Shown piece by piece: positions 9,186 through 63,278 of a stretch of 63,293 bases of DNA. Within the stretch, counting starts at the first letter, position 1, and each line of letters begins with the position of its first letter. The notes beneath the pieces are model-generated. The model made no database searches. It was not told the origin of the DNA and worked only from the letters and a program-made list of their open reading frames with translations. The DNA lies in the UHGV virus genome UHGV-0247968; one strand, given 5' to 3'. This DNA comes from a virus. The position numbers and the translations under genes were made by a program.

Positions 9186-9561
9186 GCTCACCGACATCAT
9201 GGAGCAGGAAAAGGAACTCGAACGCAGTATCCTTTTGGAACTCGCTGCTGCCGGGTCGTCGTCCATGAAGATAGATGGCGTGGGCCGTCTTGTGGTCAAG
9301 GAAAAGGTCCGTTACGAAATAGCGGACAAGGAAGCGCTGGCCTATGCCGTGCTGCGCGGCATGGTTGAAAATGCTGAACAGGGCTTTGCTTTGAGTGATG
9401 GTCTGCTGTTGCAGCAGCGCGTCGCTGCCCGCAACTTCGAAGAACGCGCCGAGCGTGCCGGTCTCGAAGGCGAAGCCTTTGATAACTACATCGTGTCATG
9501 CGGCCTTCGCCGTGTGGCAGAACCCTCCCTCAATTTCACCAAGGAGAAGAACCATGAGTGA
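9133..9561 (+). CDS. coiled-coil protein, Siphovirus Gp157-like (tentative)
   Basis: N-terminal coiled coil (EIRAKKKALQDKLTDIMEQEKELE) followed by KIDGVGRLVVKEKVRYEIADKEAL. Overlaps the 3' end of the previous gene by 53 nt in another frame. Confidence 0.4.
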   Translation: MASELSEIRAKKKALQDKLTDIMEQEKELERSILLELAAAGSSSMKIDGVGRLVVKEKVRYEIADKEALAYAVLRGMVENAEQGFALSDGLLLQQRVAARNFEERAERAGLEGEAFDNYIVSCGLRRVAEPSLNFTKEKNHE

Positions 9562-10741: not shown

Positions 10742-10770
10742 TTGACAGACAACTTGTAGACGGCTATATA
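10742..10770 (+). promoter_or_regulatory. near-consensus sigma70 promoter TTGACA-17-TATATA
   Basis: Begins immediately after the stop of the 9554 gene. Precedes the primase-helicase leader. Confidence 0.55.
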
Positions 10771-10949
10771 GGCTCCATGAGGTGGTCGACCAACCACTTC
10801 ATGGAGCCTCAACCTGAACAAGAAGGTTTTCACGGAGGCGGGAATCGAGGGAAGTCTGGATTTATGAGGGCTTGAAGCACCCTCGTGTCCGCCCAGACTG
10901 AATGGTGGTTCTACTGAGATTCCCTCCTCCCTGAAAACCTTCTTTTCAT
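10771..10949 (+). promoter_or_regulatory. highly structured 5' leader: 15-bp hairpin (10771-10808) plus a 24-bp imperfect long-range inverted repeat (10822-10845 / 10919-10942) enclosing a hairpin and followed by TTTTC
   Basis: ggctccatgaggtgg/ccacttcatggagcc. gaaggttttcacggaggcgggaat pairs with attccctcctccctgaaaaccttc with 2 mismatches. The T-rich tract after the 3' arm suggests an attenuator or terminator-like element. Confidence 0.45.
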
Positions 10950-10961
10950 AGGACACAGCGT

Positions 10962-13900
10962 ATGCTTCAGCAAACAAGACGTTTCCTTTCGAGTCTGCTC
11001 CCCCCGCTCCCTCCCCGTGAAGACTCTTTCAGCTTCCCCACATATTTTTCTCTGGGTATCAAAGACGGTTCCCGTCGGCAGAGCCCTTGCCCCAGTATCG
11101 ACGACATAATCTCCGAAGGATTTTCCCTGTCGTCACAGGGCTACAACGCCTACTTCGCCCTCGCCTCTTTCGCTGATGGTGCGGCAGGGCGCAAGCAGGT
11201 GAATGCGCGTACCCTCAAAGCCTTCTGGGTAGACCTTGATGTAGGTAAGCAAGGTATCTCCTACCCTACCATCCAGTTCGCAGCCTTTTGCCTGAACCGT
11301 TTCGTGCGCGAGACGGGTCTCAATCCGTCGTGGATTATCCATTCCGGTAAGGGCCTGCATGTATATTGGGCCCTGTCTGAGCCTGTGCCGGTCTCCTGGT
11401 GGCGCCGCGTCGCTTTCATGCTGGAAAAGGAATGCGCCGCTTTCGACCTCTGGGCAGACCCGGCTTGCACCAAAGACCCGGCGCGTGTGTTGCGTCTTCC
11501 GGGCACCATCCATCAAGGCACCGGCAACACCGTGTCCGTGGTGCGGGAGACCGGCTGGGTATGGGAGCCGCACAAGTTCGTGGAAGTCATGCTGACTTCC
11601 ATGGCGGAGAAACATCCTGATGCCATCATCAAGCTCAAGGCGGAGCTTAAGCCTGCTGTTCCTCAGAACATCGCGCAGACGCCGCAGCTTGCGGTATTGA
11701 CCGGCAATGCGCTGTTCTCCGACGACATGGGGTTCACATCTTCCGCTCCGGTGGCGAAGTCCGAACCCATAGTGCGTGGCTGCCGTCAGATGCTCTTCTC
11801 CGGTAAGGGGCAAGAGCCGCACTGGTATGCCGCCATGTCCGTGTTCAAGCGCTGTGTGGACGGCAGGGAGTGGGCCCATGCCGTGTCGGCTCTGGACAAG
11901 GAACGCTACAATCCTGCCGACTGTGACGCGAAGTTCGACCATGCCCCCGATGACGCTCCCGCCCGGTGCGAGCGCTTCGACAGCTTGAATCCCGGGGTAT
12001 GTCCTGCATGTCCGCACTGGGGCAAAATCACTTCCCCTGTGCAGTTGTGGCGGAAGTCGCAGAATGCCGGTGAAACGTTCGTGCAGCAGCCTGTGGCCCA
12101 GCCGGTGCAGCAGCCTGTGGCCCAGCCTGCGCCCCAGCCGGTGCAACGACTCATCATCCCGGAAGTCTTCGACCACCCGCGTATCGGGTTCCGCAGCAAG
12201 CGTTACAGCGTGGATGACAGAGGATGCATCTGGCACAAGTCGGAGAAACAGGACGACGGTTCCTGGGTGACGACAGACCATATCCTCACCACATCCCAAG
12301 TCTATTACATCAAGTCGGAATGGACATACACGAATGGTGTTTCTGAGCGTTCGCATTGGTTCGAGGTGCGCCACAAGCATGGGGCTGTCGAACTGATGCG
12401 CTTGCCTGCTTCCACGCTGGCAAGCAATCAGAGCCTTATGGCCGCGCTCAATTCTTCCAACATCCTTTCGTGTAACCTTGACATGTACACCCCTAAAATA
12501 TTTGCAAGTTTTATGAACAGCTACCTTCGCAGTGTTTTGGAAAACGGGTACAGTACAGAGATTCAGACGCGGGATGTGTTCGGGTGGACGGACATTACCG
12601 ACCCCGTGACGAACCAGCCCACGTTGGGTTTTGGCGTGGGCCATGGTGTCATCACAGATACCGGCATCCACGACATGGTGTATAAAGGCTCGGCTGAAAA
12701 GCTGGCGAAGAAGGAACTGTCCATCAAGGGCGACCTCGACAAATGGAAGTACGTCCCGCAGATGTACCGCATCCTCAACCAGCCTGCTGCCCAGCTCGCT
12801 ATCTGCCTGTCCTTCGCGGCTCCGCTCATGCACTATGGCCCGGGCGTCGTGCGTTCCGCTGCCTACTCTTTGTGGAGCACCACATCCGGCAAGGGTAAGT
12901 CGCAGGTGTTGTGCTCCGCCGCCTCCATCTGGGGGCATCCTGAAGAGCAGTTCGTGCAGCGCAATTCCTCTGCCGTCATGCGGATGAGGAAAATGGCCGT
13001 GCTGAACAATCTGCCCGTCTACATGGACGAACTTTCGGACATGAAAGACGAAGACCTCTATGCCCTCGCCTACAGCCTCATGGGCAATCAGGAGAAGCAG
13101 AAGCTCAAGAGCAACGGTGCTGAGATGGTCGACACCGGTTCATGGTCTACGGTCACGTTCATCACGTCGAACAAGTGCATCAAGGAAGCCGTTGCCCGCC
13201 ATGCCGGGGATTCGGAGGCCAGTATCGTGCGCGTGATGGAGTATGAGTGTGACTTCCCCTCGTATGCCGACAAGCCGGAAGTGCAGGAATATATCCACGC
13301 GTGCATGGATGCCTGCAAGACGAACTACGGCCTCGCCGGGCCCGAATTCATCTATCAGGTCTTGAAGCACAGAGACCGGCTGGCGACGCTCACGCAGCAG
13401 GTGGAGACGTGGTGTCGTAAATACGGCTTCGACAACTCGGAACGCTTCCTGAGCTATCCCTTGGCGATGGCGATGAAGGCCGGGCGCTGGGCTGTGGAGT
13501 ATGGTCTGTTGGACTATGACATGGACGCGCTGGAGAACTGGGTCATCAATGTCTTCGTGCCGCATAACCGTCGCAGCACCGAAGCGAATACGTCTGACCC
13601 CGTGCATATGCTGACGACGTACCTCATGGAGCGCCAGCTCAATATGCTGGTGGTCAGGGCCAACCATCGTGACAAGACCATGCCCGAGCAGCCGCATGGG
13701 GTACCGGACAAGTACATCGTGAGTCTGCCCAACAATAGGGACATTACCATGCGGGCCGTGCTGGCGACGCAGGAATTGTACATCTCGCGTTCCGACCTGC
13801 ACAAATGGCTCAAGGCCCAGAAGCATTCGCCTTCCAATCTCTGGAAGCGTCTCGAAGACAGAGGCATCACAGCCAAAGATACGACCAAGAATTTTGGTGA

Positions 13901-43028: not shown

Positions 43029-43682
43029 TTACGCAGTAAAACGAACGAGGGCCGACACATAGGACTGATTCGTCATACCAGCGACAGCCAATTTCACAGC
43101 TTTGCCTTTGAGTGCTCCAAGTGCCTGCGAAGAGTCATTCAGCGTGATGGTATCACTACCAGATTCAGAACTCAGCGTAACCGTAATGCCTCCGGTCCCA
43201 GAACCGTCAGCCTCGATGTAGCTGAGAGTGACGTTGTTCCATTCACTTGCGAGGACAGTGTGAATGGCCTCATCCATACCAATGAAATACAGCGGGAGGT
43301 CGGCAAAATTCGTAGGAATTTTTCCGCCCAACCACTCCTGGTCGACCTGAATCACACCCTCTTCGGTAATGGTAATACCTTCCCCAGCAGTCAGCGACCC
43401 GCCGAGGGCTTCTTCAAGAGCCGTAAGGTCGATTTCCACCGCAATGGACTCACCCTGCAAAGGGGCCTCTACTCCGGTATTGAACGTGAGAATACCCCCC
43501 GCGCTCTTGAGCAGAAACTTATCGGGGACCAGGGGGTGTCCGCCAGCAGTCGAACCGTCATGAACGACCACGACATGCTTGTCGGTGTCGACGGTGAGCT
43601 CACCGGGGAGGCCCTTGTATGTTTTGTGCTGGGCAGTCGTCCCCCTGAACTGCTGGATAGGACTGGAGTTGTTTCTCGCCAT
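43029..43682 (-). CDS. short tail fiber protein with an Mtd-type N-terminal domain
   Basis: IQQFRGTTAQHKTYKGLPGELTVDTDKHVVVVHDGSTAGGHPLV matches the conserved N-terminus of major-tropism-determinant-type fibers. Confidence 0.6.
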   Translation of the reverse strand: MARNNSSPIQQFRGTTAQHKTYKGLPGELTVDTDKHVVVVHDGSTAGGHPLVPDKFLLKSAGGILTFNTGVEAPLQGESIAVEIDLTALEEALGGSLTAGEGITITEEGVIQVDQEWLGGKIPTNFADLPLYFIGMDEAIHTVLASEWNNVTLSYIEADGSGTGGITVTLSSESGSDTITLNDSSQALGALKGKAVKLAVAGMTNQSYVSALVRFTA

Positions 43683-43798: not shown

Positions 43799-45157
43799 TT
43801 AGGCGTCCATGGTGCCGTAGTCGGAATAGACCATCAGCTTGCCATTGTCGCACTGAATCTGGTTGCCGGCAGTTTCGGAAATCATGGAACAGCCCAGAGA
43901 GCCTTCCGGGTTGTCGACCATGCCGTTGACGATGTTCGTCACCGAGTTCGTGATGTCGGCTTCCGTGAGCAGGGCGCCCTTGTCAGTACCGGGCTTGATG
44001 AGGTTGCCGCCATCGGCGGACACGACCTTCACAGACAGTTTGCCGTCGGCACCGGCCTTGATAGCGTTGTCGGCGTCGGAAGAAATCGTGTTGGTGAAGT
44101 CCACCACGATGTTGCCGCTTTCATCGAACTTGATACCGGTTCCCAGCTTGGCGGAGATGGTATGGCCGTCGATGGTGATACCCTGACCGGCGGTGTACAC
44201 ATCCACGAGGTCGGTCACATCCACATAGGTGTCAGCCACGGAACCGTCGGACAGTGCCCAGATGAAGTGCAGGTACACACCGGATTTCAGGCCCACCCCG
44301 GGCGTGAAGCTGACAGTGCCGCTGACCGTGGTACCGCTGACCGCGAACGGGACAGAGGCGGACGACGTGTCATCAAACGTCACCGTGGCCGGGCTGGAGC
44401 CACCTTCCACAGTCTTGTCGTCGCCGTTGAACACAGCACGCACAGCAGCGACCGAGGTACCACCTTCGGCCAGCTCGGTGGAGTATTCGGCGGTACCGGC
44501 GGAACCCTTGGTGGTCGTCACCTGGACACCCACGGCATCAGACCAGGCGCCGTTCTGGTCGCGGAAAATCAGGGTCAGGTGGTAGTCGCCTTCGACAGTT
44601 TCACCACCGGCATCGGGCTTACCATCCGTCAGTTCCACACCCTTGAGCACGGAAGTGCTGGACGGGATGGTCACGTTGGCGACTTCGGTGGAACCGTCAT
44701 GGCCGACGAGTTTCAGTTTACCGGAGGGCTGGTCGTAGGTCATGCTGAGGTCAGCGGCGACCTTGCCGTCGGCATCATGCAAAATCTTGTCACCGGCACG
44801 GATGATGAGATTGGCGTCAGGGGCCTTGGCATACAGCTTACTGTCGGAACCGACGGACAGACCGTTGTTCGCGTCGCCGGACACCAGGTCGGTAGCCAGG
44901 GAAGTCATGTCCACAGTGAGCGTCACATCGCCAGCGAGCGTGCCCTCAGTGGAGCCGTTCACTTTCAGGTGGGTGTCGCCAGTGACCTTGCGGTCTTCGC
45001 GGGCCATAGGAATACCACCGGCAGTGGAACCGTCGTGGACGACCACGACCTTCTTATCGGTATCGACAGTCAGTTCGCCGACTTTGCCGGTGTACGAGGC
45101 ATGCTGCGCAGTCGTACCACGATATTGCTGGATAGCGTCGGGAGTTTTACGAGCCAT
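43799..45157 (-). CDS. tail fiber protein with an Mtd-type N-terminal domain
   Basis: IQQYRGTTAQHASYTGKVGELTVDTDKKVVVVHDGSTAGGIPMA, followed by a repetitive beta-rich shaft. Confidence 0.65.
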   Translation of the reverse strand: MARKTPDAIQQYRGTTAQHASYTGKVGELTVDTDKKVVVVHDGSTAGGIPMAREDRKVTGDTHLKVNGSTEGTLAGDVTLTVDMTSLATDLVSGDANNGLSVGSDSKLYAKAPDANLIIRAGDKILHDADGKVAADLSMTYDQPSGKLKLVGHDGSTEVANVTIPSSTSVLKGVELTDGKPDAGGETVEGDYHLTLIFRDQNGAWSDAVGVQVTTTKGSAGTAEYSTELAEGGTSVAAVRAVFNGDDKTVEGGSSPATVTFDDTSSASVPFAVSGTTVSGTVSFTPGVGLKSGVYLHFIWALSDGSVADTYVDVTDLVDVYTAGQGITIDGHTISAKLGTGIKFDESGNIVVDFTNTISSDADNAIKAGADGKLSVKVVSADGGNLIKPGTDKGALLTEADITNSVTNIVNGMVDNPEGSLGCSMISETAGNQIQCDNGKLMVYSDYGTMDA

Positions 45158-49947: not shown

Positions 49948-50302
49948 CCCCCTTGATGGGGATAATCTCGATGGCCTCCAGCCACACCCGGTCTACAGCG
50001 GCAGCGATTTTGCTTCTTCTCCGGTCAATACCGTATGCCACGACGCCGGACAGCGAGATGCTCTTCTCGCATTGCCAGGACCACATGCGGCGAGCTTCAG
50101 TGAGGATGACCTCCTTCCCCGCCTTCCTGTACAGCTTGCCGAACCAGACCCCTGCGGAATAGGTGCGGATGATGACGTACTCACCGATGGCGAAATCGTC
50201 CAGGTCGGCTATGGAAATAGCCGGAGCTGCGGCGAGGTGGCCGCCAAAAAGTTTGGAAAGTTCGTCAGCCTTACCCTCGATGCTGATTTTTTCGTCGCTC
50301 AT
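49901..50302 (-). CDS. hypothetical protein
   Basis: Internal ATG at 50302 after AAAAAGGAGAG. Confidence 0.4.
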   Translation of the reverse strand: MSDEKISIEGKADELSKLFGGHLAAAPAISIADLDDFAIGEYVIIRTYSAGVWFGKLYRKAGKEVILTEARRMWSWQCEKSISLSGVVAYGIDRRRSKIAAAVDRVWLEAIEIIPIKGDAMESIKGAEVAAAE

Positions 50303-50679
50303 TTGCTCTCCTTTTTTGAGTTTGTCCGCAGACAACCCCTTCCTGCTGCCCAGGGCCTATGCACTAGTTCCCATACATGCCTGAACGCTATTCCCCCGCA
50401 AACCGGGCATTTTCCTATAGGCCCTTCGAAGCCACAGTCAGGACACTTTCCAAGTACATCCTGCCCGCTGGCATCCTGCTTAACCTCTTGGCGAACGTCG
50501 TATACTGCGCCCGTCTTCAAATCGAGAATGCCGCCTTTCCAGTCGCCGCAGTATTCATACTCACGACAAAAACAGAGTCGGTGCCAGAACGGATGGAAGT
50601 TCCCGCACGGTTGTTTCCTGTACAGTCCGGGGATACGGACAAGGATACGCTGGAACCAGGAACCTGCTGCACTACTCAT
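50299..50679 (-). CDS. zinc-ribbon protein
   Basis: ATG at 50679 after GGGAGAGG. Contains CGNFHPFWHRLCFC...C and KCPDCGFEGPIGKCPVCG. Confidence 0.45.
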   Translation of the reverse strand: MSSAAGSWFQRILVRIPGLYRKQPCGNFHPFWHRLCFCREYEYCGDWKGGILDLKTGAVYDVRQEVKQDASGQDVLGKCPDCGFEGPIGKCPVCGGIAFRHVWELVHRPWAAGRGCLRTNSKKESK

Positions 50680-50699
50680 TTGAACCTCTCCCACATACC

Positions 50700-51287
50700 C
50701 TATTCCTCACTCGGGGAGGCCGAAGGGCCGTAAGCCTCGGCTCTCCAGGCTTCATAAATCGTGCGCTGCTCAGTCGTAAGGTCAGCCACGTCGAGTTTTT
50801 TGACGTACCGGTAAGCCGCCGGAGAGAAATCGACGATGGTCCCCGAACCGATAAAGTCTCTCCTGGCCCCGCATTCGTAGATGATATGGAACGGGTATAT
50901 GGCGTCACTATGGGAGAAATACTGCGCAATACCAAATCTCCCGCCATTCCAACCTGTCTCACCAGGAAGGAAGTCAGAGCAGAGCACCGGAGTCCCGACA
51001 ACGAACCACGGTTCGCGACTGCGAGTCCACCCCTCAACATCGGCAGCCGAGAACGTCGGCGCGAGGGCGACGGTGCCAACGAGCTCGGCAGTAAGGGACG
51101 TGTACGGGACGATTTCCTTGAACACCTCCCTGCTCCCGACCAGCAAGTAACCCACAGAGCCGTCAGGCTGCGTCACAGTCCTGGAGTAGAACCCGGGCTC
51201 CCAAAATTCCAAATTACCGTTACGAGCCAGAACACGGTCAAACGTCGTGTACTTCCAGTTCGCGTAGATGCTCACCTTCTTATCCAT
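50700..51287 (-). CDS. hypothetical protein
   Basis: ATG at 51287 after AGGGGG. Confidence 0.4.
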   Translation of the reverse strand: MDKKVSIYANWKYTTFDRVLARNGNLEFWEPGFYSRTVTQPDGSVGYLLVGSREVFKEIVPYTSLTAELVGTVALAPTFSAADVEGWTRSREPWFVVGTPVLCSDFLPGETGWNGGRFGIAQYFSHSDAIYPFHIIYECGARRDFIGSGTIVDFSPAAYRYVKKLDVADLTTEQRTIYEAWRAEAYGPSASPSEE

Positions 51288-51306
51288 TTTTCTACCCCCT
51301 ATCCAC

Positions 51307-51675
51307 TTACGCTCGCTTGTCCTTGTACCCAAGCAAAGTATCGAGCGACTCATGTACCACGATACCGTAGCCACGCAGCAAGTCCCGCATCGGAGGCCAC
51401 CAAACAGGCGTTGCGTCCGTATCAGACCGATGTATGAGAAAGACCTCATCGGCATCCGTTATACGGTTGAGCATGTCGGCCAGAAGCTCCAACTGCTTTT
51501 TGCGATTCTCGGTGCAAAGTTTTGTCGTATCTGCATTGATGAACAGTCTGTCCACCTTATGCCCGAGACTACCAAGAATAGTGGACAACAGACCGACCTT
51601 CTTTTCAAACTGCTGCCCGACAGTAGACAGCGTATAAAATTTGAAATCAAGCGGGACGATGATGAAGATTCTCAT
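51307..51675 (-). CDS. Rossmann-like protein resembling nucleoside 2-deoxyribosyltransferase / DUF4406 (paralog of 52309..52659)
   Basis: MRIFIIVPLD... LGHKV ... DADEVFLI ... YGIVVHE has the same topology as the 52309 gene product. Confidence 0.35.
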   Translation of the reverse strand: MRIFIIVPLDFKFYTLSTVGQQFEKKVGLLSTILGSLGHKVDRLFINADTTKLCTENRKKQLELLADMLNRITDADEVFLIHRSDTDATPVWWPPMRDLLRGYGIVVHESLDTLLGYKDKRA

Positions 51676-51836
51676 ATTTCTTCTACCTCGAAGTCGAAGT
51701 CCATACTGGAAGCTCTGTACTGCAAATATTTTTCGGCAGCGAAATCTTTAGCCATGTCTTCACTTTCGGCTTCAATTTCATACTCTTCTTCGTTGAGAAT
51801 AGAGTTCGGAGAAATGAGAACTTTGTACTTAGGCAT
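51672..51836 (-). CDS. small acidic protein (54 aa), paralog of 52662..52865
   Basis: Not in the ORF table. Overlaps the upstream membrane-protein gene by 8 nt (ATGCCTAA) and the downstream gene via ATGA. YEIEAESEDMAKDFAAEKY aligns with YIIEAENYEEAFAKARDM. Confidence 0.45.
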   Translation of the reverse strand: MPKYKVLISPNSILNEEEYEIEAESEDMAKDFAAEKYLQYRASSMDFDFEVEEI

Positions 51837-52308
51837 CAGTCTTTCGACTCCATCTTAAAAGATTCCCATATTTTACCGTCTCAGACACGACCATAGCGAC
51901 AACGAAAAGCGTTCCGGTCATAAGCACTGATATTACAGCAGACAAGAAAGTCTTGACGGAAAAACCAGGGTAGACGAAGAAATCATAACTGAAAGAAATA
52001 GCGAACCAAAAATTCCAAAGCATCAGCACGATGCTGAAGAAAAGCAGTCCGGTGAATGCGTCATATTCATCCACCCTGTCGAATGTCCAAGACATGACAT
52101 CATCCACCTTGTCATCAAACCTGTCACACAGGTCGAACATGACCTCAGCAATCTTGCGAAGACTGTCCGCCAAGAATTTAAGGTAAATGACGAAAATCAT
52201 GCCCAGTACACAGCACCACATCAACAGACTATGCACTACGCTGTTATTGCGTCCACAAGCAGCGAACACAGTAGAAAGCATATTTCTGATTGTAGCAGTA
52301 AATGTCAT
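51829..52308 (-). CDS. polytopic membrane protein (4-5 TM helices)
   Basis: Hydrophobic helices. GGGAGA RBS. AT-rich local composition. Confidence 0.5.
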   Translation of the reverse strand: MTFTATIRNMLSTVFAACGRNNSVVHSLLMWCCVLGMIFVIYLKFLADSLRKIAEVMFDLCDRFDDKVDDVMSWTFDRVDEYDAFTGLLFFSIVLMLWNFWFAISFSYDFFVYPGFSVKTFLSAVISVLMTGTLFVVAMVVSETVKYGNLLRWSRKTDA

Positions 52309-52659
52309 CTACATATTCTCCCGCAAACCCAGATAACAGAGACGACGCAAACCCTCTTCCCCATACAACACAGGGATACCGTAAGAACCGGCGCAATGGA
52401 TTTCCGCCTCACATCCCCTGGGCAGTTTCGTGTTCCGGTCACGCTCTCCGATATAGAGCAGTGCGTCGCAACGGGAGAGGATTTTAAGCGATTCCCCCAG
52501 GCACCACAGTGCCTCATTCACACTCTCGGGTGGAACGTCGATGTAACTGTCCTCGACCACATGCCCGACCTTTTCCAACAGCCTACAAGCAAGGGCCCGG
52601 TCCGCGTAGATTTCTTCCTTCGTCTTGCCCTTCATGGGCTGGCTGATGAACACACGCAT
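52309..52659 (-). CDS. DUF4406 / nucleoside 2-deoxyribosyltransferase-like (Rcl/DNPH1-type fold) protein
   Basis: MRVFISQPMKGK... GHVVE ... CDALLYIGERD ... RGCEAEIHCAGSYGIPVLYG fits the MKIYIAGPM...W..S.G...E...A...G.PV pattern. Confidence 0.45.
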   Translation of the reverse strand: MRVFISQPMKGKTKEEIYADRALACRLLEKVGHVVEDSYIDVPPESVNEALWCLGESLKILSRCDALLYIGERDRNTKLPRGCEAEIHCAGSYGIPVLYGEEGLRRLCYLGLRENM

Positions 52660-52661
52660 GG

Positions 52662-52865
52662 CTAGTACCTCTCCTGATATTCTCCATCGACAAAGTCAGC
52701 TTCACTGACACTACGCGCTTCCATGTCGATGTCATCGTCATCAAGACGCTTCCATTCGTCAGGCAGCATATCACGAGCCTTGGCGAATGCTTCCTCATAA
52801 TTTTCGGCCTCGATGATATATGTCTTCGGGCCTGCCATAACCTTGACTGCGAATTTCCAACTCAT
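52662..52865 (-). CDS. small acidic protein (67 aa)
   Basis: ATGA overlap with the upstream 2-TM protein gene. Paralogous to the 51672..51836 product. Confidence 0.45.
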   Translation of the reverse strand: MSWKFAVKVMAGPKTYIIEAENYEEAFAKARDMLPDEWKRLDDDDIDMEARSVSEADFVDGEYQERY

Positions 52866-53083
52866 CGTAACATACTCCTTACTAGCAGCAGCAACCTGTT
52901 CTCCAGGAGGTCGGAGATTATGACCACGAGCCATATCAGCATCAGGATGATGCGAACAGCGGCCCCAGCCTGGACCCACCCCGGTGCAGTGGACAGCGTA
53001 TACATCAGACCGAACACATCGGTCACGACACCGAAAACAACGAGAGCGACGGCAAAGGCCACTATCCAGTACACACGAGACAT
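52862..53083 (-). CDS. small membrane protein (2 TM helices)
   Basis: Two strongly hydrophobic segments. Confidence 0.5.
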   Translation of the reverse strand: MSRVYWIVAFAVALVVFGVVTDVFGLMYTLSTAPGWVQAGAAVRIILMLIWLVVIISDLLENRLLLLVRSMLR

Positions 53084-53086
53084 GGA

Positions 53087-53725
53087 TTAACTCTTCCCGG
53101 AAAGTGTTTCATCAGAAGAGGATTCCACCGTAGTGTCGACCCTGTTGAAAGGATACCGCCAGGGCAGCAGTTCGGGGTGGCCCAGAGCAGGGAAAATGGC
53201 GTCAAGGAAAAATTTCCACTCAGGGAGCTTGTGGTTATCGCGCTGCAAGATGATGTTCTTCAGGACAGCATAGTTCCCCGTCCAGATGCGACGCTGCAAC
53301 CAGCTCTGCGGGAGACAGGCGTTGAGCCTGCTGAAATCCCCGTCCTGCCGCAAATCTTCCAGAAAGTTGACATAGTAATCAGGAACATGCCTGGATTCGA
53401 AGCAATACTTCGTAACAGGCTTCTTCATCAGCGTGTGCATCGTGGACTCGGACTGGGCCACGGTGGACACCTTGTAGGTGTCCATCTGCTTCCACCAGTA
53501 CAGCGGCGCCGTGATGTCGAGGATGACACCAATCTGCCGCAGAAACTTGTCGTGTCCACCGGCGCCGTACAGCGCGAGCTGCGGCGCCAGTTCGCACAGC
53601 CTGGCCCATTCATCGTGCTGCTTGGCCTCTTCGGGCGTCGCATACCCGGACACCTTCCCATACGACAACCCGATACCGAACAGGGCCTCTTCGTACCCAA
53701 ACTCTTTCATCAGCCGAACACGCAT
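53087..53725 (-). CDS. ThyX-family (flavin-dependent thymidylate synthase-like) protein with non-canonical active-site motif
   Basis: GHDKFLRQIGVILDITAPLYWWKQM aligns with the ThyX [25 protein letters not shown] region. RIWTGNYAVLKNIILQRDNHKLPEW aligns with the ThyX C-terminal ...TGNYR.W..FI..R...HA..EI motif. Canonical RHR(x7)S is replaced by TYK(x7)E. Confidence 0.45.
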   Translation of the reverse strand: MRVRLMKEFGYEEALFGIGLSYGKVSGYATPEEAKQHDEWARLCELAPQLALYGAGGHDKFLRQIGVILDITAPLYWWKQMDTYKVSTVAQSESTMHTLMKKPVTKYCFESRHVPDYYVNFLEDLRQDGDFSRLNACLPQSWLQRRIWTGNYAVLKNIILQRDNHKLPEWKFFLDAIFPALGHPELLPWRYPFNRVDTTVESSSDETLSGKS

Positions 53726-53726
53726 A

Positions 53727-54023
53727 TCACATATCCTTCTTGAGCCACGCCGCCAGCGCAGCTTCTCCATCTGGTGTCAAAAGATAATATCCCCGCACAT
53801 TGCCGCGATGCCTCGGCAGCCCGATACGCATGAGGAACCCCTTGCCGCACAGCTTGTTGGCTATCCCGCAGGCACGCATGGCAATACCCTGACGATACCG
53901 CGCGGAAGGTTTCCTGGGCGGTAACGACGCGAATGCCCTGAGACCAAGCACATAGCCGAACGCATGACCCCTCGGCAGGTCGGCCACCGCCTTCAGGATG
54001 CGGTATTCCGCAAGTGTCAGCAT
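53727..54023 (-). CDS. winged-helix DNA-binding protein (MarR/PadR-like)
   Basis: YRILKAV...GYVLGL...RGYYLLTPDGEAAL. GGGAGG RBS. 1-nt TGATG coupling with the dUTPase gene. Confidence 0.45.
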   Translation of the reverse strand: MLTLAEYRILKAVADLPRGHAFGYVLGLRAFASLPPRKPSARYRQGIAMRACGIANKLCGKGFLMRIGLPRHRGNVRGYYLLTPDGEAALAAWLKKDM

Positions 54024-54538
54024 CAGTCACCTCCCGTGGACCCGAAGCCCTTCGTTTCCCTGTAGGTGTGCGACAATTCCTCGACCACGGCGAACTCGAC
54101 GTCGATGCTGAGACCCTTGTTGATGTCCGCGACCACGAGCGCCGGGGCCATGATGGTCGGCACGATGATGAGCTGCGCCACCCTCTGGCCCTCATAGTAG
54201 GCCACAGTGGGCTTGCGCAGGAGCGACGCGGCGCCTCTGGCCTGCACACTGTCCGCTTTGCGGAACAGCACCTTCACCGTGCCCCGGTAGTCAGGGTCGA
54301 TGACCTGGACACCGCTGCCCATCATCTCCAGACCTGAACACACGACAGAGCTGCGGGCCACGAGCAGACCGGCGAACCCTGCGGGCAACTCCATCTCCAC
54401 ACCGGTGTCGAAACAATAAACCCCGTTCCGCCGCGTGAGCTTCGCCCCCCAAAGGTCGAACCCCACGGCACCGCCGCTCATGCGACACGGCACCTTCGCC
54501 CCGGCGAGCGTGAGCTTACACGGGATGATGACAGCCAT
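54023..54538 (-). CDS. dut: dUTP diphosphatase (dUTPase)
   Basis: Motifs GAVGFDL, RSS, GVQVIDPDYRG and RGxxGFGSTG. ATG at 54538 after AAGGAGG. Confidence 0.85.
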   Translation of the reverse strand: MAVIIPCKLTLAGAKVPCRMSGGAVGFDLWGAKLTRRNGVYCFDTGVEMELPAGFAGLLVARSSVVCSGLEMMGSGVQVIDPDYRGTVKVLFRKADSVQARGAASLLRKPTVAYYEGQRVAQLIIVPTIMAPALVVADINKGLSIDVEFAVVEELSHTYRETKGFGSTGGD

Positions 54539-54590
54539 ATCTTCCTCCTTGTTATGATGTATAGTAAAGCATAGTAAGTCGCAAAGGTCA

Positions 54591-54626
54591 ATAAAAAACC
54601 CTCCCGCGTGTCGGAGAACGGGAGGG
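54591..54626 (-). terminator. intrinsic terminator on the - strand (ccctcccg-ttctccgacac-gcgggaggg + TTTTTTATT), at or near the IS right end
   Basis: Read directly. Separates the TnpB region from the dut promoter-like sequence TTGACC-17-TTTACT. Confidence 0.6.
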
Positions 54627-54639
54627 TTCTGAGAGGTGT

Positions 54640-54830
54640 GGCTCACCAGGAACGCATGACTGATGCTCCACAGGAATGTATCCGGTCCCTGCAACACCCC
54701 GGGCGTATCACCCTAGTTTCACCCGGGACATCGTTCAGGCAGTTTTGGTTGTACCCCAGGAGCGCGCCATAGTCAACATTGACATCCTCCCCCGCCTAAA
54801 GTCGGGGGATTCCTATCGGTAGCGGCTCTA
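54640..54830 (-). ncRNA. putative TnpB-associated omegaRNA / right-end RNA
   Basis: By analogy with IS605-family elements the guide RNA overlaps the tnpB 3' end and extends to the right end. Strong secondary structure is visible (ggaggatgtc..., cccgggtgaaactagggtga...). Not verified. Confidence 0.3.
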
Positions 54831-56030
54831 ACGAGCCGCGCCACAGGCGGGTTCCTGCTTCGACGCGGGCGCTTGAGCCCTTCCCGCTCCACAGGCTGTC
54901 ACGGCCTGCCCGGCCGCCAGAATGTTCAACGCCGCATTATGGTCAGCGTTGCATTCAAATCCGCAGGCCGTACAGCTGAATTTCGCCTGCGTTGGTCTGT
55001 TTGCCCTGTCTACGCATCCGCAATGGCTGCATGTCTGACTGGTATACTGCGGTGGAATGACAATCAGCACACCTCCCAGCCATTTCAACTTGTACTCAAG
55101 CTGTCTGCGGAACTCATACCAGCCCTGATCCAGTATGGACTTGTTTAATCCTGCCTTTGCCCGCACATTTTTCCCCGGTGCTTCAAGCGTACCGGAAGCC
55201 GAACGCGACATATTCCGCACTTTCAAATCTTCAATCACGACAAGAGCGTGGTTTTTGCTGATTATCGTGGTTGTCTTGTGCAGAAAATCGTTGCGTACAT
55301 TGGCTATTGTACGGTGCAGGCGCTGGATTTTGGCTTTGAGCTTCTGCCAGTTGGCGGAAAACTTCACTCGTTTTGCCAACTTCCGCTGCAGCTTTGCCAG
55401 CTTCTTTTCATGCTTGCGGAAACTGTGCAGTGGTCTGATAGAAGAGCCATCGGAAAACGTCGCAAAACGGGCAATGCCCATATCTATGCCGACGACACTT
55501 TGCGAAGGATGCACAGGTTCTGGAACTTCCCGTTCCGTCTGAATGGAGACGTACCACTTTCCAGCGGAAAGAGAGACTGTCACCTGTTTCGGCGTTCCCT
55601 CTATTTTGCGGCTGTTGCGGTAGCGTATCCACCCGATTTTGGGAAGGAATATGCGGTCGTTCCTCTCGTCCAGCTTGAAACCCTGCGGATAGCGGAAGGC
55701 GTCATGAACCCCCTTTCTCTTGAAACGCGGGAAATTCGCACGCTTCGCAAAAAAGTTTTTGTAGGCCCTATCGAGATCTTTCAACGCTTGTTGCAGAATT
55801 TGAGAATGGGCTTCAGCAAGAAAAGATGTGTCGTTTTCCTTCTTCCAGTCCCGAAGGGCTTCGCAGAGCAAGGAAAACCCCAGACGCTTCCCTTCCTTTT
55901 CATAGGTCTCTTTTTCCAATGCAAGCGCCTTGTTCCAAAGGAAACGACAACAGCCGGCAAAGCGCCGCATGAGGCTTTCCTGCCCGGTTTTGGGGCGGAG
56001 CTGAAACTTATAGGCTTGCAATCTTTCCAT
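54828..56030 (-). CDS. tnpB: TnpB (IS605 OrfB-type RNA-guided nuclease)
   Basis: MERLQAYKFQLRPK start. RuvC-like motifs GIDMG, VVIEDLK, NADHNAALNI. Zinc finger CSHCGC...CTACGFEC. Confidence 0.85.
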   Translation of the reverse strand: MERLQAYKFQLRPKTGQESLMRRFAGCCRFLWNKALALEKETYEKEGKRLGFSLLCEALRDWKKENDTSFLAEAHSQILQQALKDLDRAYKNFFAKRANFPRFKRKGVHDAFRYPQGFKLDERNDRIFLPKIGWIRYRNSRKIEGTPKQVTVSLSAGKWYVSIQTEREVPEPVHPSQSVVGIDMGIARFATFSDGSSIRPLHSFRKHEKKLAKLQRKLAKRVKFSANWQKLKAKIQRLHRTIANVRNDFLHKTTTIISKNHALVVIEDLKVRNMSRSASGTLEAPGKNVRAKAGLNKSILDQGWYEFRRQLEYKLKWLGGVLIVIPPQYTSQTCSHCGCVDRANRPTQAKFSCTACGFECNADHNAALNILAAGQAVTACGAGRAQAPASKQEPACGAAR

Positions 56031-56303
56031 AGGTTCCAGTCTATCGCAGCACAAACGAAAAGGCAAAAATTCCAGTTAAGGTGCGCCTTATATCCCCGCC
56101 CTGAAGGGCGAGGCTTTACGGCGCGCTGGGTAAAATCTGGTGCCCCGCCCCATCAGCTCAACCGCAGGCGGTATGGGGCGGGGACTTTCAAGTTTGGCGT
56201 TCCAGGGTTGGCGTCCGGTCGCGTACCCCAGAAACACATCGGGTGTGCAGTCACCCGACAGCAAACTGTACAAAACGTCACGTCGTCTTGCTGTTGGCTG
56301 AAC

Positions 56304-56975
56304 CTACTTGGAAGACGCTCCGGTGTCAAGAGCTTTCGGGGCCAGGGCCAAAATCTTGTGCATGGCCTGCCGCAAATACTCAGCTTCCCACTCAGCATCG
56401 TGCAGGGCGTGGTGCGCGACACCGGTATCGGGGACCTCGACGGTGATACCGAGGGACTTCGCCATGAGCTCCACGGTTCTGAGCGACTGGTTGTTCCGGT
56501 AGGTCCACACCTTCGACAAGAAATCGGAATCATCATAGCACGCAATCGCGTCACGCCAGATGACATTATCGAACTCCGGTCCCTTCCCCCAGAACTGCAC
56601 ATCGGTACCGGACCGAACAGCAGAGTACGACATGACCCAGCGCACAAAATGCCGCGCGGCAAAATACAGGGAGACGGCATCGTTGTCGTCGAACACGGCT
56701 TCCCGTGCAGCAGGACTGGTCTTCATGGCCCACCACCGCACCGTATCATAATCCATGATACGGCCCGGCTGGTTGTCACCACGAACAGTACAATAGAACC
56801 TGCCGATGACTTCATAGTGTTCGTCGAGGGCCACGGCACCGATGGCTACGATGACAGGTCTGAGACCAAGCCCGAGCGTTTCGAGGTCGATGACCACATG
56901 CAACAGGGTGCGGTCCCGCCCCTGGATGTTTTCCTGCACACGATACATTTCGGTGCCACATTCTTCTTTATCCAT
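56304..56975 (-). CDS. DEDDh-family 3'-5' exonuclease (DnaQ-like)
   Basis: Exo I VIDLETLGL; Exo III HHALHDAEWEAEYL. ATG at 56975 after GGGAGG. The table ORF extends upstream without an RBS. Confidence 0.75.
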   Translation of the reverse strand: MDKEECGTEMYRVQENIQGRDRTLLHVVIDLETLGLGLRPVIVAIGAVALDEHYEVIGRFYCTVRGDNQPGRIMDYDTVRWWAMKTSPAAREAVFDDNDAVSLYFAARHFVRWVMSYSAVRSGTDVQFWGKGPEFDNVIWRDAIACYDDSDFLSKVWTYRNNQSLRTVELMAKSLGITVEVPDTGVAHHALHDAEWEAEYLRQAMHKILALAPKALDTGASSK

Positions 56976-57002
56976 ATATACCTCCCGTATGTATAGAGCT
57001 GT

Positions 57003-57031
57003 GTATAACAACACGCACAGAAAATAGCAAC
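57003..57031 (-). promoter_or_regulatory. possible promoter for the - strand operon (TTGCTA-17-TATACA on the - strand) in an AT-rich stretch
   Basis: Divergent intergenic region 56976-57587. Confidence 0.3.
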
Positions 57032-57302
57032 ACGAAAAGTAAAATACAAAATTTTTCAGGTAAGTGAAAAGATATTCGAGTGTGGGGCCTGTCCAGATGG
57101 GGTGGGGTAGTGATGCATAGTGGGAGAATTTCGAAGGTGGAGAAGGTTGTGAGCGCAGCACAGAATGTACGTTTTCTCTACGGGTCGACGGAACCGCCGT
57201 CCAAACCCACCTGGCCCTCGCCGAACGCGCTGCCGCCCTCGCGCCCAGGTCCCCGCCTAAGTATCTGAAATCATTGAACTTTTCGATATACAAAATACGT
57301 TA

Positions 57303-57361
57303 TTGACAGCCCCCCTTACATGTGACACTATTACCTTAACAGGTTGAGATAATACCTTAAC
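57303..57361 (+). promoter_or_regulatory. TTGACA-17-CACTAT promoter-like element followed by two direct TACCTTAAC repeats spaced 21 bp apart (operator-like)
   Basis: TTGACA at 57303-57308. Repeats at 57332-57340 and 57353-57361. Upstream of the + strand 57588 gene. Confidence 0.35.
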
Positions 57362-57587
57362 GGTATTGCTTCCCCTGCCTGCTCTTTGACAATGCGGACA
57401 GCCCGCCCATCCGCTCGCGCCTCATGGCGCACAAGCGCCATCCCCGCCCCTCGCGTCTGCCATCGTGCCACGTTGAGACGGCGCGGCGCATGCCATGAGA
57501 CAACGCGAGGGACACGGATGCACCGGCACAGTGCTGGCCTGATATAGAGACATCACACGGATGGGGGAGACGGAAAGGGGATGCACC

Positions 57588-58256
57588 ATGAGCAACACCA
57601 ATACCGCCACCACCAACAACACCACCACCACCAAGCCCGCCGCCGTGCCTACGGCGAAGGTCTTCGCCGGATACGTCGATGAGCTGATGGCAGCTGGTGC
57701 CGCCGTCGAAAAGGTAGCGGCCAAGATCGCACTGGCCGCCACCAGACAGGCCGCCCATCGGTCAAGCCTGTCCTACCTCAACGCAGCCTATGCCGCGTTC
57801 AAGCGGTGCCACCTCACATGCCTGCCGCAGCTCACTCGCTACGCGCTGGGCGCGCTGGGCGGCATGGCCGCCGATGACAAAGGCAATCCTGTGATTTCCC
57901 GGTCAAAGTCTCTCCTGCGCGTCACAGACGCGCGGGAGAGGAAGCAGAACGGTGGAGATGCTTTCGACTGGGCAGTCGAACCGAAGGACGCACGAGCCAA
58001 GGAAGAGCTGGCAAGAGCCCGCAGGGCTCTTGCTCACAGTGACTTCGCCGACTTCCTGACCGCGCCCACGGCTTCGGCCAAGCCCCTGAAGGAAGACGGC
58101 ATGACGCAATCTGAACGCGAATTGCGGGCGTTACTCAACTGGGCACGTCGGAATAACAAGGCCGCCACCAGCAAGCGTGCTGGTGAGCGCGGCTACACGG
58201 AACTTCAAGACGCGCTCCGCGCCGTCAAGGCACTGTTCAAGGAATTTGACGATTAA
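57588..58256 (+). CDS. hypothetical Ala-rich protein (first gene of the + strand block)
   Basis: GGAAAGGGGA RBS before the ATG at 57588. N-terminal T/N-rich tract. Confidence 0.5.
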   Translation: MSNTNTATTNNTTTTKPAAVPTAKVFAGYVDELMAAGAAVEKVAAKIALAATRQAAHRSSLSYLNAAYAAFKRCHLTCLPQLTRYALGALGGMAADDKGNPVISRSKSLLRVTDARERKQNGGDAFDWAVEPKDARAKEELARARRALAHSDFADFLTAPTASAKPLKEDGMTQSERELRALLNWARRNNKAATSKRAGERGYTELQDALRAVKALFKEFDD

Positions 58257-60463: not shown

Positions 60464-61423
60464 ATGGAATATTGTCTCTACGACTTCGGTGAGATTTTCA
60501 CCGGCAAGAAGTCGGGCAAGCTGGTTCCCGGTTTCACCGGTGACCCTGTGCATCCGCTGGCTCCGGCCTGCGTGGCCGACTATGAGTACCCTGCGTGGAG
60601 CCGTGACGTGTTCCTGTGGTGGTGCGGCGAGAAGCCCGAGCCGCTGTATATCGGCGGCCCGACCGGCTGCGGCAAGTCAAGCCTTATCCGTCAGCTCGCT
60701 TCCAGACTGCTCTACCCTGTCTATGAGGTGACTGGCCATTCCCGGCTGGAGACGCCGGAGCTTATCGGTCACCACGCCCTGAAGGACGGCGCCACTGTCT
60801 GGGTGGACGGCCCGCTGACTTCGGCTATGCGGCACGGAGGCATATTCTTAATTGACGAAGTGGACTTGCTCGACCCGGGCACGGCCACTGGTCTGAACAC
60901 TGTCCTCGATGGCGCTCCCCTGTGCATCCCTGACACGGGCGAGACTGTCATGCCCCATCCCGGGTTCCGGTTCGTCGCCACTGCCAACACCTTCGGCGAC
61001 GGCGACATGTCGGGCAGGTATCAGGGCACGCTGCGGCTGAACGCCGCCTTCATGGACAGGTTCGTGGTGCTTGAGGCCACGTTCCTGCCCGAAGTCGCGG
61101 AGCTGCGCCTGCTCGCCCGTCGCGCCCCGTCGCTGCCGGAAGAACTGCGCAAGGGCATGGTGCGGCTGGCGGGCATGGTGCGCGACCAGTCGAAGCTGCC
61201 CAGCGATGTGCCCCGGGCCCAGGCCCTCGAAGGCATGACCTTCTCGACCCGCACGCTGCTCAGGTGGGCGACGTGGACGGAGGCGTGCAGGCCGCAGGCC
61301 ATGCGTGCCGGTGAACCCCCCGTCGCCTATGCGCTCACGAGAGCGCTGGGCAACAGGTGCGGAGAAGGTGGAAGACGTGTGCTGGATGAGCTTGTCCAGC
61401 GTGTGTTCGACATCAGCAAGTAG
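60464..61423 (+). CDS. AAA+ ATPase of the MoxR/CobS (AAA_5) type
   Basis: Walker A GGPTGCGKSS, Walker B IFLIDEVDLL, sensor-1 VATANT. Typical partner of VWA proteins. Confidence 0.75.
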   Translation: MEYCLYDFGEIFTGKKSGKLVPGFTGDPVHPLAPACVADYEYPAWSRDVFLWWCGEKPEPLYIGGPTGCGKSSLIRQLASRLLYPVYEVTGHSRLETPELIGHHALKDGATVWVDGPLTSAMRHGGIFLIDEVDLLDPGTATGLNTVLDGAPLCIPDTGETVMPHPGFRFVATANTFGDGDMSGRYQGTLRLNAAFMDRFVVLEATFLPEVAELRLLARRAPSLPEELRKGMVRLAGMVRDQSKLPSDVPRAQALEGMTFSTRTLLRWATWTEACRPQAMRAGEPPVAYALTRALGNRCGEGGRRVLDELVQRVFDISK

Positions 61424-62312: not shown

Positions 62313-63278
62313 ATGTCCGAAAACAACGTGAGCTACATGAACAACTGCGTGTATCTGAAGCTGGACATCTCCATCTGGACGGGCAAGGCCCGCCTCACCC
62401 CCGAAGACATCCCCGATGCCGTGGTCGACATGCCGCCCGAGGCGCTGGCTACGCTCGGTTCCAAGCGCATCTTCGACCCCCAGGCGTTGCGCCCCTTCAA
62501 CGCCGCGAAGACCAAGGCGTTCCGCACCTGCGACCAGTACGGTGTGCGCTGCATGGGCGGCTGGCTGGTGGATAACGGCGTCCTCAACATTCTGACTGCC
62601 GAGCTCGACAAGCTGCGCGGAGAGTTCGACCGCAGCGTCGGTACGTTCATCTCCACCTATGAGGACGGGGCGTCGAACTGGCTCCAGCAGTTTCCCGAAT
62701 GGGAGGGCATCATCCGTGCCGCCTTGCCCGACAGCACGGACATCGGGAAGAAGTTCGCGTTCAGGTACTACGTCCTCAAGGTGCAGACCGAGAACCACGA
62801 CGCCCAGGATGCGACTTCCGAGGCCCCGTCAACGGCTGCTGCTACCATCGCCGCTGAGATTGCCCGCATCAGGGAGCAGGTGTTCAACGACGACCGCACG
62901 TCGCCCGTGACCAGCAAGACCTTCTGCTGCCTCGACACCCTCGCCGACCGGTGTGACAACATGTCCTTCGTGCATCCCGGCTTTGCCCATCTGGCCCATC
63001 TGCTCCGCAGTATCGTGGTCAACAGCACCGACGTGAATGTCGTGCGCGCCTTCCTGACCGGGCTCTCCACGCCCGAGGCCGTGGCCGCCGTGACACAGGA
63101 GACTCGCATCTATGACTTCGAGAAGGACAGCCTCGATATGCCCGAGCCTGCTGCGCCCGTGGATATGCCTGAGCCTGCTGCTCCCGTGGAGATGCCCGAG
63201 CCTGTGGCCCCCGTCGTCACCAGCCAGCCCACCACTGCCGACGACAGCCTCGCTGCCCTTCTCTCTGACTTCATCTAA
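62313..63278 (+). CDS. hypothetical protein (possibly the DUF3150-type protein that accompanies phage CobS/CobT-like pairs) with a C-terminal (DMPEPAAPV)x3 repeat
   Basis: AGGAGGAAAGCACC ATG. Assignment to DUF3150 is from memory of gene neighbourhoods only. Confidence 0.45.
   Translation: MSENNVSYMNNCVYLKLDISIWTGKARLTPEDIPDAVVDMPPEALATLGSKRIFDPQALRPFNAAKTKAFRTCDQYGVRCMGGWLVDNGVLNILTAELDKLRGEFDRSVGTFISTYEDGASNWLQQFPEWEGIIRAALPDSTDIGKKFAFRYYVLKVQTENHDAQDATSEAPSTAAATIAAEIARIREQVFNDDRTSPVTSKTFCCLDTLADRCDNMSFVHPGFAHLAHLLRSIVVNSTDVNVVRAFLTGLSTPEAVAAVTQETRIYDFEKDSLDMPEPAAPVDMPEPAAPVEMPEPVAPVVTSQPTTADDSLAALLSDFI
63135..63212 (+). repeat. 27-bp tandem repeat x3 encoding (D/E)MPEP(A/V)APV
   Basis: gatatgcccgagcctgctgcgcccgtg x3 read directly. 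Confidence 0.85.

Follow-up and report, generated by a model that had tools for sequence, protein, structure and literature searches.

A ThyX-fold protein family lacking the RHR motif, encoded next to nucleotide-metabolism genes in a podovirus-like phage

The flavin-dependent thymidylate synthase ThyX (also Thy1; PF02511; EC 2.1.1.148) has been studied for its mechanism and as a target of antimicrobial drugs, and possession of the RHR...S motif serves as the criterion by which members of the family are filtered (PMC2826268). The active sites of ThyX are formed by three subunits of the tetramer (PMC3498832; PMC9931769), and deoxyuridine monophosphate (dUMP) is hydrogen-bonded by residues R78, R80, S88 and R90, R78 and R90 being named as conserved contacts (PMC3498832). 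Here, we report on a ThyX-like protein of 212 amino acids (aa), which is encoded on the minus strand at positions 53087-53725 of UHGV virus genome UHGV-0247968, a stretch of 63,293 nucleotides that is subsequently designated the window. The window corresponds to approximately the whole of the metagenomic contig ENA scaffold_711 (63,762 bp) and represents a podovirus-like phage. The ThyX fold and the homology of the protein to ThyX are established. As to its function, we consider it plausible, and propose tentatively, that it is a working dUMP-directed enzyme acting at the thymidylate-synthase step. The protein belongs to a large sister family of ThyX that is mostly phage-borne.

The closest described proteins are ThyX enzymes of the short Helicobacter/Campylobacter type (3AH5, 3N3Y, CP30A). 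They are of similar size (approximately 200 aa), adopt the same fold, can be aligned over the full length and are found in like genomic company, i.e. with dUTPase, ribonucleotide reductase (RNR) and replication genes. The motif serine, the invariant arginine at the position of R174 and the equivalents of H53, N163, N169, H178, E182 and P151 are held in common. In contrast to ThyX, the family carries T-Y-[R/K] in place of RHR, M-H in place of R90-Y91 and S in place of E86, is one residue longer from the RHR position to the serine, and possesses invariant or near-invariant residues of its own. PHROG 6721 is the same family as that delineated here from metagenomes, and it has been given neither a functional annotation nor a connection with ThyX. 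With the phage T4 pair of gp56 (dCTPase/dUTPase) and gp42 (dCMP hydroxymethylase), the locus shares the pairing logic only, in which a dUTPase-superfamily enzyme is matched with a thymidylate-synthase-like one that deviates from the housekeeping enzyme in its active site. However, gp42 has the ThyA fold, whereas the ThyX fold is found here, and the window lacks the kinase and the glycosyltransferases that accompany the pair in T4. In the literature, we found no description of a ThyX-like family without RHR.

Fold and active site of the ThyX-like protein

Queried by itself, the 212-aa protein had no sequence match in Pfam (E ≤ 0.1), NCBIfam or the Protein Data Bank (PDB), and its only single-sequence match was phrog_6721 (unknown function; E 2.3e-32). 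Its AlphaFold2 (AF2) model, which reached a predicted local distance difference test score (pLDDT) of 92.1, was compared with the PDB by Foldseek. The best 50 of 156 matches (E ≤ 0.001) were all ThyX chains, the top structural matches being 3n3y and 3ah5 (E 1.2e-8, template-modelling (TM) score 0.70). When a viral structure library was searched with the model, two uncharacterised phage proteins ranked first, followed by ThyX. At the level of profiles, hhalign aligned the family with canonical ThyX at E 2.4e-5, spanning residues 1-181. The canonical alignment consisted of Thermotoga maritima ThyX, whose sequence was checked to be 100% identical to 1KQ4/1O26, and seven annotated phage ThyX proteins. 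The family hidden Markov model (HMM) found the canonical ThyX of Campylobacter phage CP30A at 2e-10, and H. pylori ThyX ranked first, with a weak E of 0.14, when the family profile was run against the PDB. In the reverse direction, the canonical-ThyX HMM did not detect the 212-aa protein at E ≤ 1. Among 89 aligned relatives, 52 touched PF02511 (Thy1) at E ≤ 1, the best of them at 1e-8, and members P0166 and P0202 were above the 24.8-bit Pfam Thy1 cutoff (ten extended or fused members were scanned separately). Taken together, profile-profile comparison, AF2/Foldseek and the Thy1 matches of the relatives agree, and therefore the assignment of 53087-53725 to the ThyX fold, which the original prediction had made from the letters of the window, is established.

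Residue correspondences with T. maritima ThyX were derived by hhalign and by an independent MAFFT alignment, which agreed, and frequencies were taken from 89 family members:

H58, at T. maritima H53: H in 69 of 89
T83, at T. maritima R78: T in 68 of 89
Y84, at T. maritima H79: Y in 85 of 89
K85, at T. maritima R80: R or K in 79 of 89
S92, at T. maritima E86: S in 88 of 89
S94, at T. maritima S88: 89 of 89
M96, at T. maritima R90: M in 77 of 89
H97, at T. maritima Y91: H in 84 of 89
N135, at T. maritima R147: K in 50 of 89
N151, at T. maritima N163: N in 73 of 89
N157, at T. maritima N169: N in 64 of 89
R162, at T. maritima R174: 89 of 89
H165, at T. maritima H178: H in 87 of 89
E169, at T. maritima E182: E in 56 of 89

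Both alignments place T83-Y84-K85 at the RHR position of the ThyX motif RHR(X7-8)S. The triplet RHR occurs in none of the 89 members; position 83 is R in seven and position 84 is H in one. The original prediction had been right in this respect, but its further claim that the motif serine is replaced by glutamate turned out to be a register error: a one-residue insertion puts S94 on S88, so that the spacing is x8 rather than x7. Realignment thus leaves the serine intact and RHR still absent. The family motif reads DTY[RK]x8S, with the serine lying within QSESTMH, and the counterpart in CP30A is ESTRY. Newly invariant or near-invariant residues are D82, W78, Q144, R146, Q161 and W170.

Compared with T. 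maritima ThyX (1O26), the residues S94, R162, H58, N151, N157, H165 and E169 find their counterparts, as does the equivalent of P151, whereas those of R78, H79, R90 and Y91 do not. Of the dUMP hydrogen-bonding set, two out of four are retained (K85 for R80, and S94), R78 and R90 being changed to T and M, respectively. R174 is invariant in the canonical ThyX alignment, as is the aligned R162 in the family; we take R174 to be equivalent to R182 of the PBCV-1 enzyme, i.e. to the strictly conserved arginine of the uracil pocket. Beyond the four hydrogen-bonding residues, the tentative assignment of residues to flavin adenine dinucleotide (FAD) or dUMP binding follows the annotation of 1O26 and was used as a lead only. 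Judged from these alignments, the pyrimidine-ring side of the pocket appears to be retained, and two of the basic clamp residues are lost. S94, R162, H58, N151, N157 and H165, whose counterparts in ThyX point towards the rings of uracil and flavin, are kept.

These residues bear on the possibility that the protein is an ordinary, divergent FAD-dependent ThyX with canonical mechanism, in which the motif changes are tolerated. Retention of the serine and of the equivalents of R174, H53 and N169 would fit, as would the scores of P0166 and P0202 above the Pfam cutoff. Moreover, about one fifth of the family members carry a precomputed PF02511 match and an automatic Thy1/ThyX label in public databases, one of them being named 'thymidylate synthase ThyX' at JGI, while the others are labelled 'hypothetical protein'. 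However, we regard this explanation as improbable: RHR is missing from every one of the 89 members, R90 is replaced by methionine in 77 of them, the canonical-ThyX HMM misses the 212-aa protein, and R78 and R90 are named as conserved dUMP contacts (PMC3498832).

Conservation and genomic company of the family

An exhaustive search yielded 2341 cluster representatives at 50% identity. The replacement motif is 90-100% conserved among sequences that are only 35-53% identical to the 212-aa protein. Close relatives were compared in eight genomes, i.e. the window and L011-L017, all of which carry an intact ThyX-like open reading frame (ORF). The ratio of non-synonymous to synonymous substitution rates (dN/dS) of the gene versus its seven relatives is 0.29-0.37, and purifying selection acts on it. 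One metagenomic member, P0268 (521 aa), contains a LAGLIDADG intein exactly before the invariant serine (...TKQSG/C...GN/STMHT..., slashes marking the intein boundaries). Inteins are typically placed at functionally critical or catalytic sites. Several relatives have N-terminal zinc-ribbon extensions. The family resides mostly on phage contigs, and cultured carriers include ProddE, phiCD211, Fnu1 and phiCTP1. The family member of ProddE is gp14 (UAJ16894.1). In GTDB species genomes, a pattern-based scan confirmed only six loci, three of which are ProddE-like prophages of Desulfovibrio.

The loss of the textbook RHR signature would be in keeping with an inactivated ThyX relic that drifts without function, which the original prediction had offered as an alternative. 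We set this alternative aside as hardly credible in view of the size of the family (2341 clusters), the conservation of the replacement motif, a dN/dS of approximately 0.3 and the intein that one member carries at the invariant serine. The intact ORF in eight out of eight close genomes likewise speaks against it.

In the window, the gene at 54023-54538 had been predicted to encode a dUTPase, and its product indeed matches PF00692 at E 1.6e-13 (51 bits versus a gathering score of 22; profile positions 3-129 of 129). It also matches phrog_135 (7e-19) and TIGR00576 (4.5e-18), the latter with 65 bits and thus under the equivalog-type cutoff of 102.55. This gene lies two genes upstream of the ThyX-like gene in the same gene string. 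For a survey of neighbours across the family, 80 viral loci, found in a search seeded with a 12-sequence alignment, were combined with cultured-phage, genome and metagenome loci, giving 83-95 loci in all. Neighbouring ORFs were clustered without prior labels, Pfam labels were added, and the loci were collapsed at 60% identity into 41 lineages. Many loci being truncated, the neighbour counts are lower bounds.

The commonest neighbours were dUTPase, a T7-type 5'-3' exonuclease, NrdD/NrdG, a MazG-like pyrophosphatase, DNA polymerase, an AAA_33 kinase and a primase-helicase, dUTPase being the most conserved one. In 36 of 95 loci, corresponding to 11 of 41 lineages, dUTPase or Dcd was encoded on the strand of the ThyX-like gene, at a distance of up to approximately 6 kb; NrdD was a neighbour in 11 lineages as well, and any of dUTPase/Dcd, NrdD, NrdG and MazG in 20. 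In six of the eleven dUTPase/Dcd lineages, Dcd overlaps the ThyX-like gene or follows it immediately downstream, and a two-gene cassette of ThyX-like gene and Dcd (dCTP deaminase family) is the sole stretch common to otherwise unrelated contigs. In one member, P0233, the ThyX-like domain is fused to a dCMP deaminase. Neither ThyA nor canonical ThyX was found in any of the neighbourhoods, anywhere in the window or in two complete genomes, namely those of ProddE, a Desulfovibrio phage, and phiCD211, a phage of C. difficile. NrdD/G is encoded by both phages, and phiCD211 has a dUTPase in addition. The conserved neighbours, i.e. dUTPase/Dcd, NrdD/G and replication genes, are what one would expect around an ordinary thymidylate synthase gene.

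Several further observations were made at individual loci. The ThyX-like/Dcd cassette is seen at 10001-11108 of L100 (ENA ERZ27252236 k141_21564) and also in L050, L063-L067, L074 and L101; L100 looks cellular, with bacterial housekeeping neighbours (tRNA synthetase, NAD synthase, CoaE). On L099, a 285-kb phage contig, the ThyX-like gene is flanked on either side by a GT4 glycosyltransferase, one of which belongs to the 'GT4-conflict' type (8704-11722), and a methyltransferase and a phosphoribosyltransferase follow further downstream. This may be a DNA-modification island and is unique among the 95 loci. Three candidate associations were rejected: dCMP deaminase as a recurrent neighbour (0 of 83 neighbourhoods, the fusion being a singleton), glycosyltransferase (1 of 95 loci) and dNMP kinase (DNMK; 2 of 95 loci).

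The neighbours also bear on the idea that the enzyme uses dUMP (or dCMP) to make a non-canonical pyrimidine nucleotide, e.g. 5-hydroxymethyl-dUMP, for a modified phage genome, with the monophosphate being supplied by dUTPase or a Dcd-family enzyme in the way that gp56 of T4 supplies gp42. An active site that is rewired yet conserved would agree with such a route, and so would the L099 gene between two glycosyltransferases with a methyltransferase nearby, the DNMK near the gene in L098, the AAA_33 kinases in 6 and MazG-like pyrophosphatases in 7 of the 41 lineages, and the pairing of dUTPase/Dcd with a thymidylate-synthase-like protein, which fits the hydroxymethyl-dC logic of T4. Nevertheless, we judge this idea unlikely. 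The links to glycosyltransferase and DNMK are confined to one and two of 95 loci, respectively, no recognisable kinase, MazG or glycosyltransferase is encoded in the window, and the DUF4406-like gene of the window (see below) is not a conserved partner. For the nature of the base, the invariant arginine at the R174 position would favour a uracil-type over a cytosine-type substrate.

Accessory genes and other features of the window

All ORFs that the original prediction had named are present on the minus strand, in agreement with the gene calls of ENA scaffold_711. Listed in the order of transcription, the gene string comprises the following features, and the genes abut or overlap from dUTPase downstream:

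56304..56975, minus strand: Rv2179c-like DEDDh 3'-5' exonuclease, 223 aa (PF16473, phrog_255)
~54779..56129 (coding sequence 54828-56030), minus strand: IS200/IS605-family element, tnpB only (PF12323, PF01385, PF07282)
54023..54538, minus strand: dUTPase, 171 aa (PF00692, phrog_135, TIGR00576)
53727..54023, minus strand: 98-aa protein between dUTPase and ThyX-like gene, only in this phage group
53087..53725, minus strand: ThyX-like protein, 212 aa (AF2, Foldseek, hhalign, MAFFT, phrog_6721)
52862-53083, minus strand: small ORF, 73 aa (source-contig gene call)
52662-52865, minus strand: small ORF, 67 aa (source-contig gene call)
52309..52659, minus strand: DUF4406/nucleoside 2-deoxyribosyltransferase-like protein, 116 aa (phrog_355; PF14359 below cutoff)
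51829-52308, minus strand: small ORF, 159 aa (source-contig gene call)
51672-51836, minus strand: small ORF, 54 aa (source-contig gene call)
51307..51675, minus strand: 122-aa lineage-restricted protein with predicted flavodoxin-like alpha/beta fold (AF2 model)

The DEDDh exonuclease was confirmed by PF16473 (E 2.9e-31, 109 bits versus a gathering score of 27) and phrog_255 (3.8e-42). At the 3' end of its gene (window ~56332-56340), L011, L012 and L015 contain an extra insert of ~0.8 kb that is absent from the window. The gene order as originally described had overlooked the 1.35-kb IS605-type TnpB element between exonuclease and dUTPase, whose HTH_OrfB_IS605, OrfB_IS605 and TNB zinc-ribbon domains all score over cutoff. 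It is absent from this site in L011-L017, where homology stops at ~56130 and resumes at 54778, and since it is missing from the seven close relatives, it is a recent insertion outside the metabolic module. No tnpA adjoins tnpB in the gene calls, the gene being flanked only by those for exonuclease and dUTPase. Copies of 79-114 bp of its dUTPase-proximal end (54779-54892), which are 99-100% identical, occur elsewhere in L013 and L015.

A winged-helix regulator had been assumed at 53727-54023. This is unsupported, as the 98-aa protein has no match in Pfam, PHROGs, NCBIfam or the PDB; its gene is present in the window and L011-L017 and is conserved only in this phage group. No matches in Pfam, PHROGs and NCBIfam were obtained for the 73-, 67-, 159- and 54-aa ORFs (51672..53083).

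The two remaining genes had been described as encoding paralogous proteins of the Rcl/DUF4406 type. The 116-aa protein is probably of the DUF4406/nucleoside 2-deoxyribosyltransferase type: it matches phrog_355 (nucleoside 2-deoxyribosyltransferase) at E 1.3e-12 and scores 18.7 bits with PF14359 (DUF4406), which is under the cutoff of 22 and covers profile positions 1-91 of 91. In contrast, the 122-aa protein is an orphan and not a detectable paralogue. It has no family match in Pfam, PHROGs or NCBIfam, and BLASTP detected no similarity between the two proteins. Its AF2 model (pLDDT 79) is a generic three-layer alpha/beta domain, for which Foldseek found no significant neighbour in the PDB (best LacI, E 3e-3); the putative nucleoside 2-deoxyribosyltransferase 4mcj matched at E 0.016-0.12 and TM ~0.3, i.e. 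no better than unrelated alpha/beta folds. The 67 close homologues of the 122-aa protein are all at least 61% identical and are restricted to this phage group.

A functional module of the ThyX-like protein with Rcl/N-glycosidase-like enzymes, as envisaged originally, was considered and rejected. The 116-aa gene is found in 3 and the 122-aa gene in 6 of the 8 close genomes, both occur solely in some members of a single phage group, and neither accompanies the family elsewhere. Because these genes are patchy and no match to the Rcl type was obtained for the 122-aa protein, the ThyX-like protein and N-glycosidases do not form a conserved unit. The conserved unit is the ThyX-like protein together with a dUMP-supplying enzyme. 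We regard the DUF4406-like gene, the gene for the 122-aa protein and the TnpB element as accessory passengers rather than partners.

As for the remainder of the window, the plus strand encodes a family-A DNA polymerase, a helicase and a primase, and the minus strand encodes portal, capsid and internal virion proteins, an M15 endolysin and Mtd_N tail proteins. An Rfam search of 50000-58000 and a tRNA search of the entire window gave no matches. In-frame tandem coding repeats are located at 2608-2721, 10502-10705 and 809-976; two proteins of the replication module contain such repeats as Pro/Ala-rich 'APAPAAQP' linkers, and a 650-aa VWA/CobT-like protein contains one that is rich in Ser/Asp/Gly/Thr. 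This 650-aa protein (55-2007) is adjoined by an AAA_5 (MoxR-like) ATPase and a DUF3150 protein encoded on the plus strand at 60464-61423 and 62313-63278, and an AAA_5 ATPase of this type is present also in a subset of other contigs of phages bearing the ThyX-like gene. Two minus-strand tail proteins, encoded at 43029-43682 and 43799-45157, contain Mtd_N (major tropism determinant) domains, which are usual companions of diversity-generating retroelements. Such an element was sought and rejected: no pair of template and variable repeats with a length of 60 nt or more was detected, and a reverse transcriptase was not seen.

Proposed role of the family and its significance

In the proposed role at the thymidylate-synthase step, the adjacent dUTPase would generate dUMP, which would then be consumed by the ThyX-like protein. 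In other lineages, dUMP could be supplied by a Dcd-type enzyme or by class III RNR in conjunction with dUTPase: class III RNR would lead to dUTP and dCTP, from which dUTPase or Dcd would form dUMP. The ThyX-like protein is the candidate consumer because dUMP needs one and no other is encoded. The most economical product would be thymidine monophosphate (dTMP), made with altered binding of the nucleotide phosphate or of the cofactor. Of the original interpretation, the ThyX-fold homologue, the rewired site and the link to dUMP via dUTPase hold up; the Rcl module does not, and little positive evidence was obtained for a route to a modified base.

A number of points weigh against such a role. The equivalents of R78, H79, R90 and Y91, which belong to the ThyX motif or contact dUMP, are lost, R147 is changed to N in the 212-aa protein, whereas 50 of 89 relatives have K at this position, and R165 is changed to A. 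Owing to the loss of R78, H79 and R90, textbook FAD-dependent chemistry appears doubtful. The 212-aa protein fails the Pfam Thy1 model, and we found no experiment on any family member in the literature. Half of the lineages are without a nucleotide-metabolism neighbour in the available flanking DNA, and the dCMP-deaminase fusion P0233 is represented by one cluster only, found on one contig of 4.7 kb. Finally, the absence of ThyA and ThyX from three genomes is weak evidence, since most phages are without any thymidylate synthase.

The lost contacts could also be accommodated by a ThyX-shaped tetramer that is not catalytic but a nucleotide binder or anti-host factor, and which either sequesters a pyrimidine nucleotide or signalling molecule or joins host ThyX subunits to alter host thymidylate synthesis. 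Half of the canonical substrate contacts are gone while the pocket is still conserved, several relatives carry zinc-ribbon extensions, and mixed tetramers are conceivable given that each active site involves three subunits (PMC3498832; PMC9931769). All known cultured carriers, 28 phage records in total, have hosts in the genera Desulfovibrio, Clostridioides, Clostridium, Fusobacterium or Enterocloster, or stem from gut samples. Many such anaerobes use ThyX. However, the gene is located in replication and nucleotide-supply modules on the strand of dUTPase, Dcd and NrdD and not among early host-takeover genes, the Dcd-coupled cassette, with one copy in a cellular-looking contig, suggests metabolism, and catalytic sites are typical places for an intein such as that at the invariant serine. 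On balance, a non-catalytic tetramer seems rather unlikely to us.

A more far-reaching version of the dUMP-directed role would be a mechanistically new thymidylate-synthase-like branch. Having lost the nucleotide/FAD-phosphate clamp of RHR and R90, it might act on dUMP with a different cofactor arrangement (e.g. flavin mononucleotide or no flavin) and might employ S94, H97 and D82 directly in catalysis, so that phages of strict anaerobes would obtain dTMP or dUMP substituted at position 5. This version is speculative, and we give it only a small chance.

Since cultured carriers exist (ProddE, phiCD211, Fnu1, phiCTP1), direct testing is possible. Thousands of clusters keep the ThyX fold and, as far as the alignments tell, the uracil side of the pocket, with the other half of the pocket swapped for an equally conserved motif. 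If active, the family would either show to what extent the 'essential' ThyX motif can be dispensed with or reveal a new reaction on dUMP, and it would change the annotation of phage nucleotide metabolism in anaerobic and gut ecosystems.

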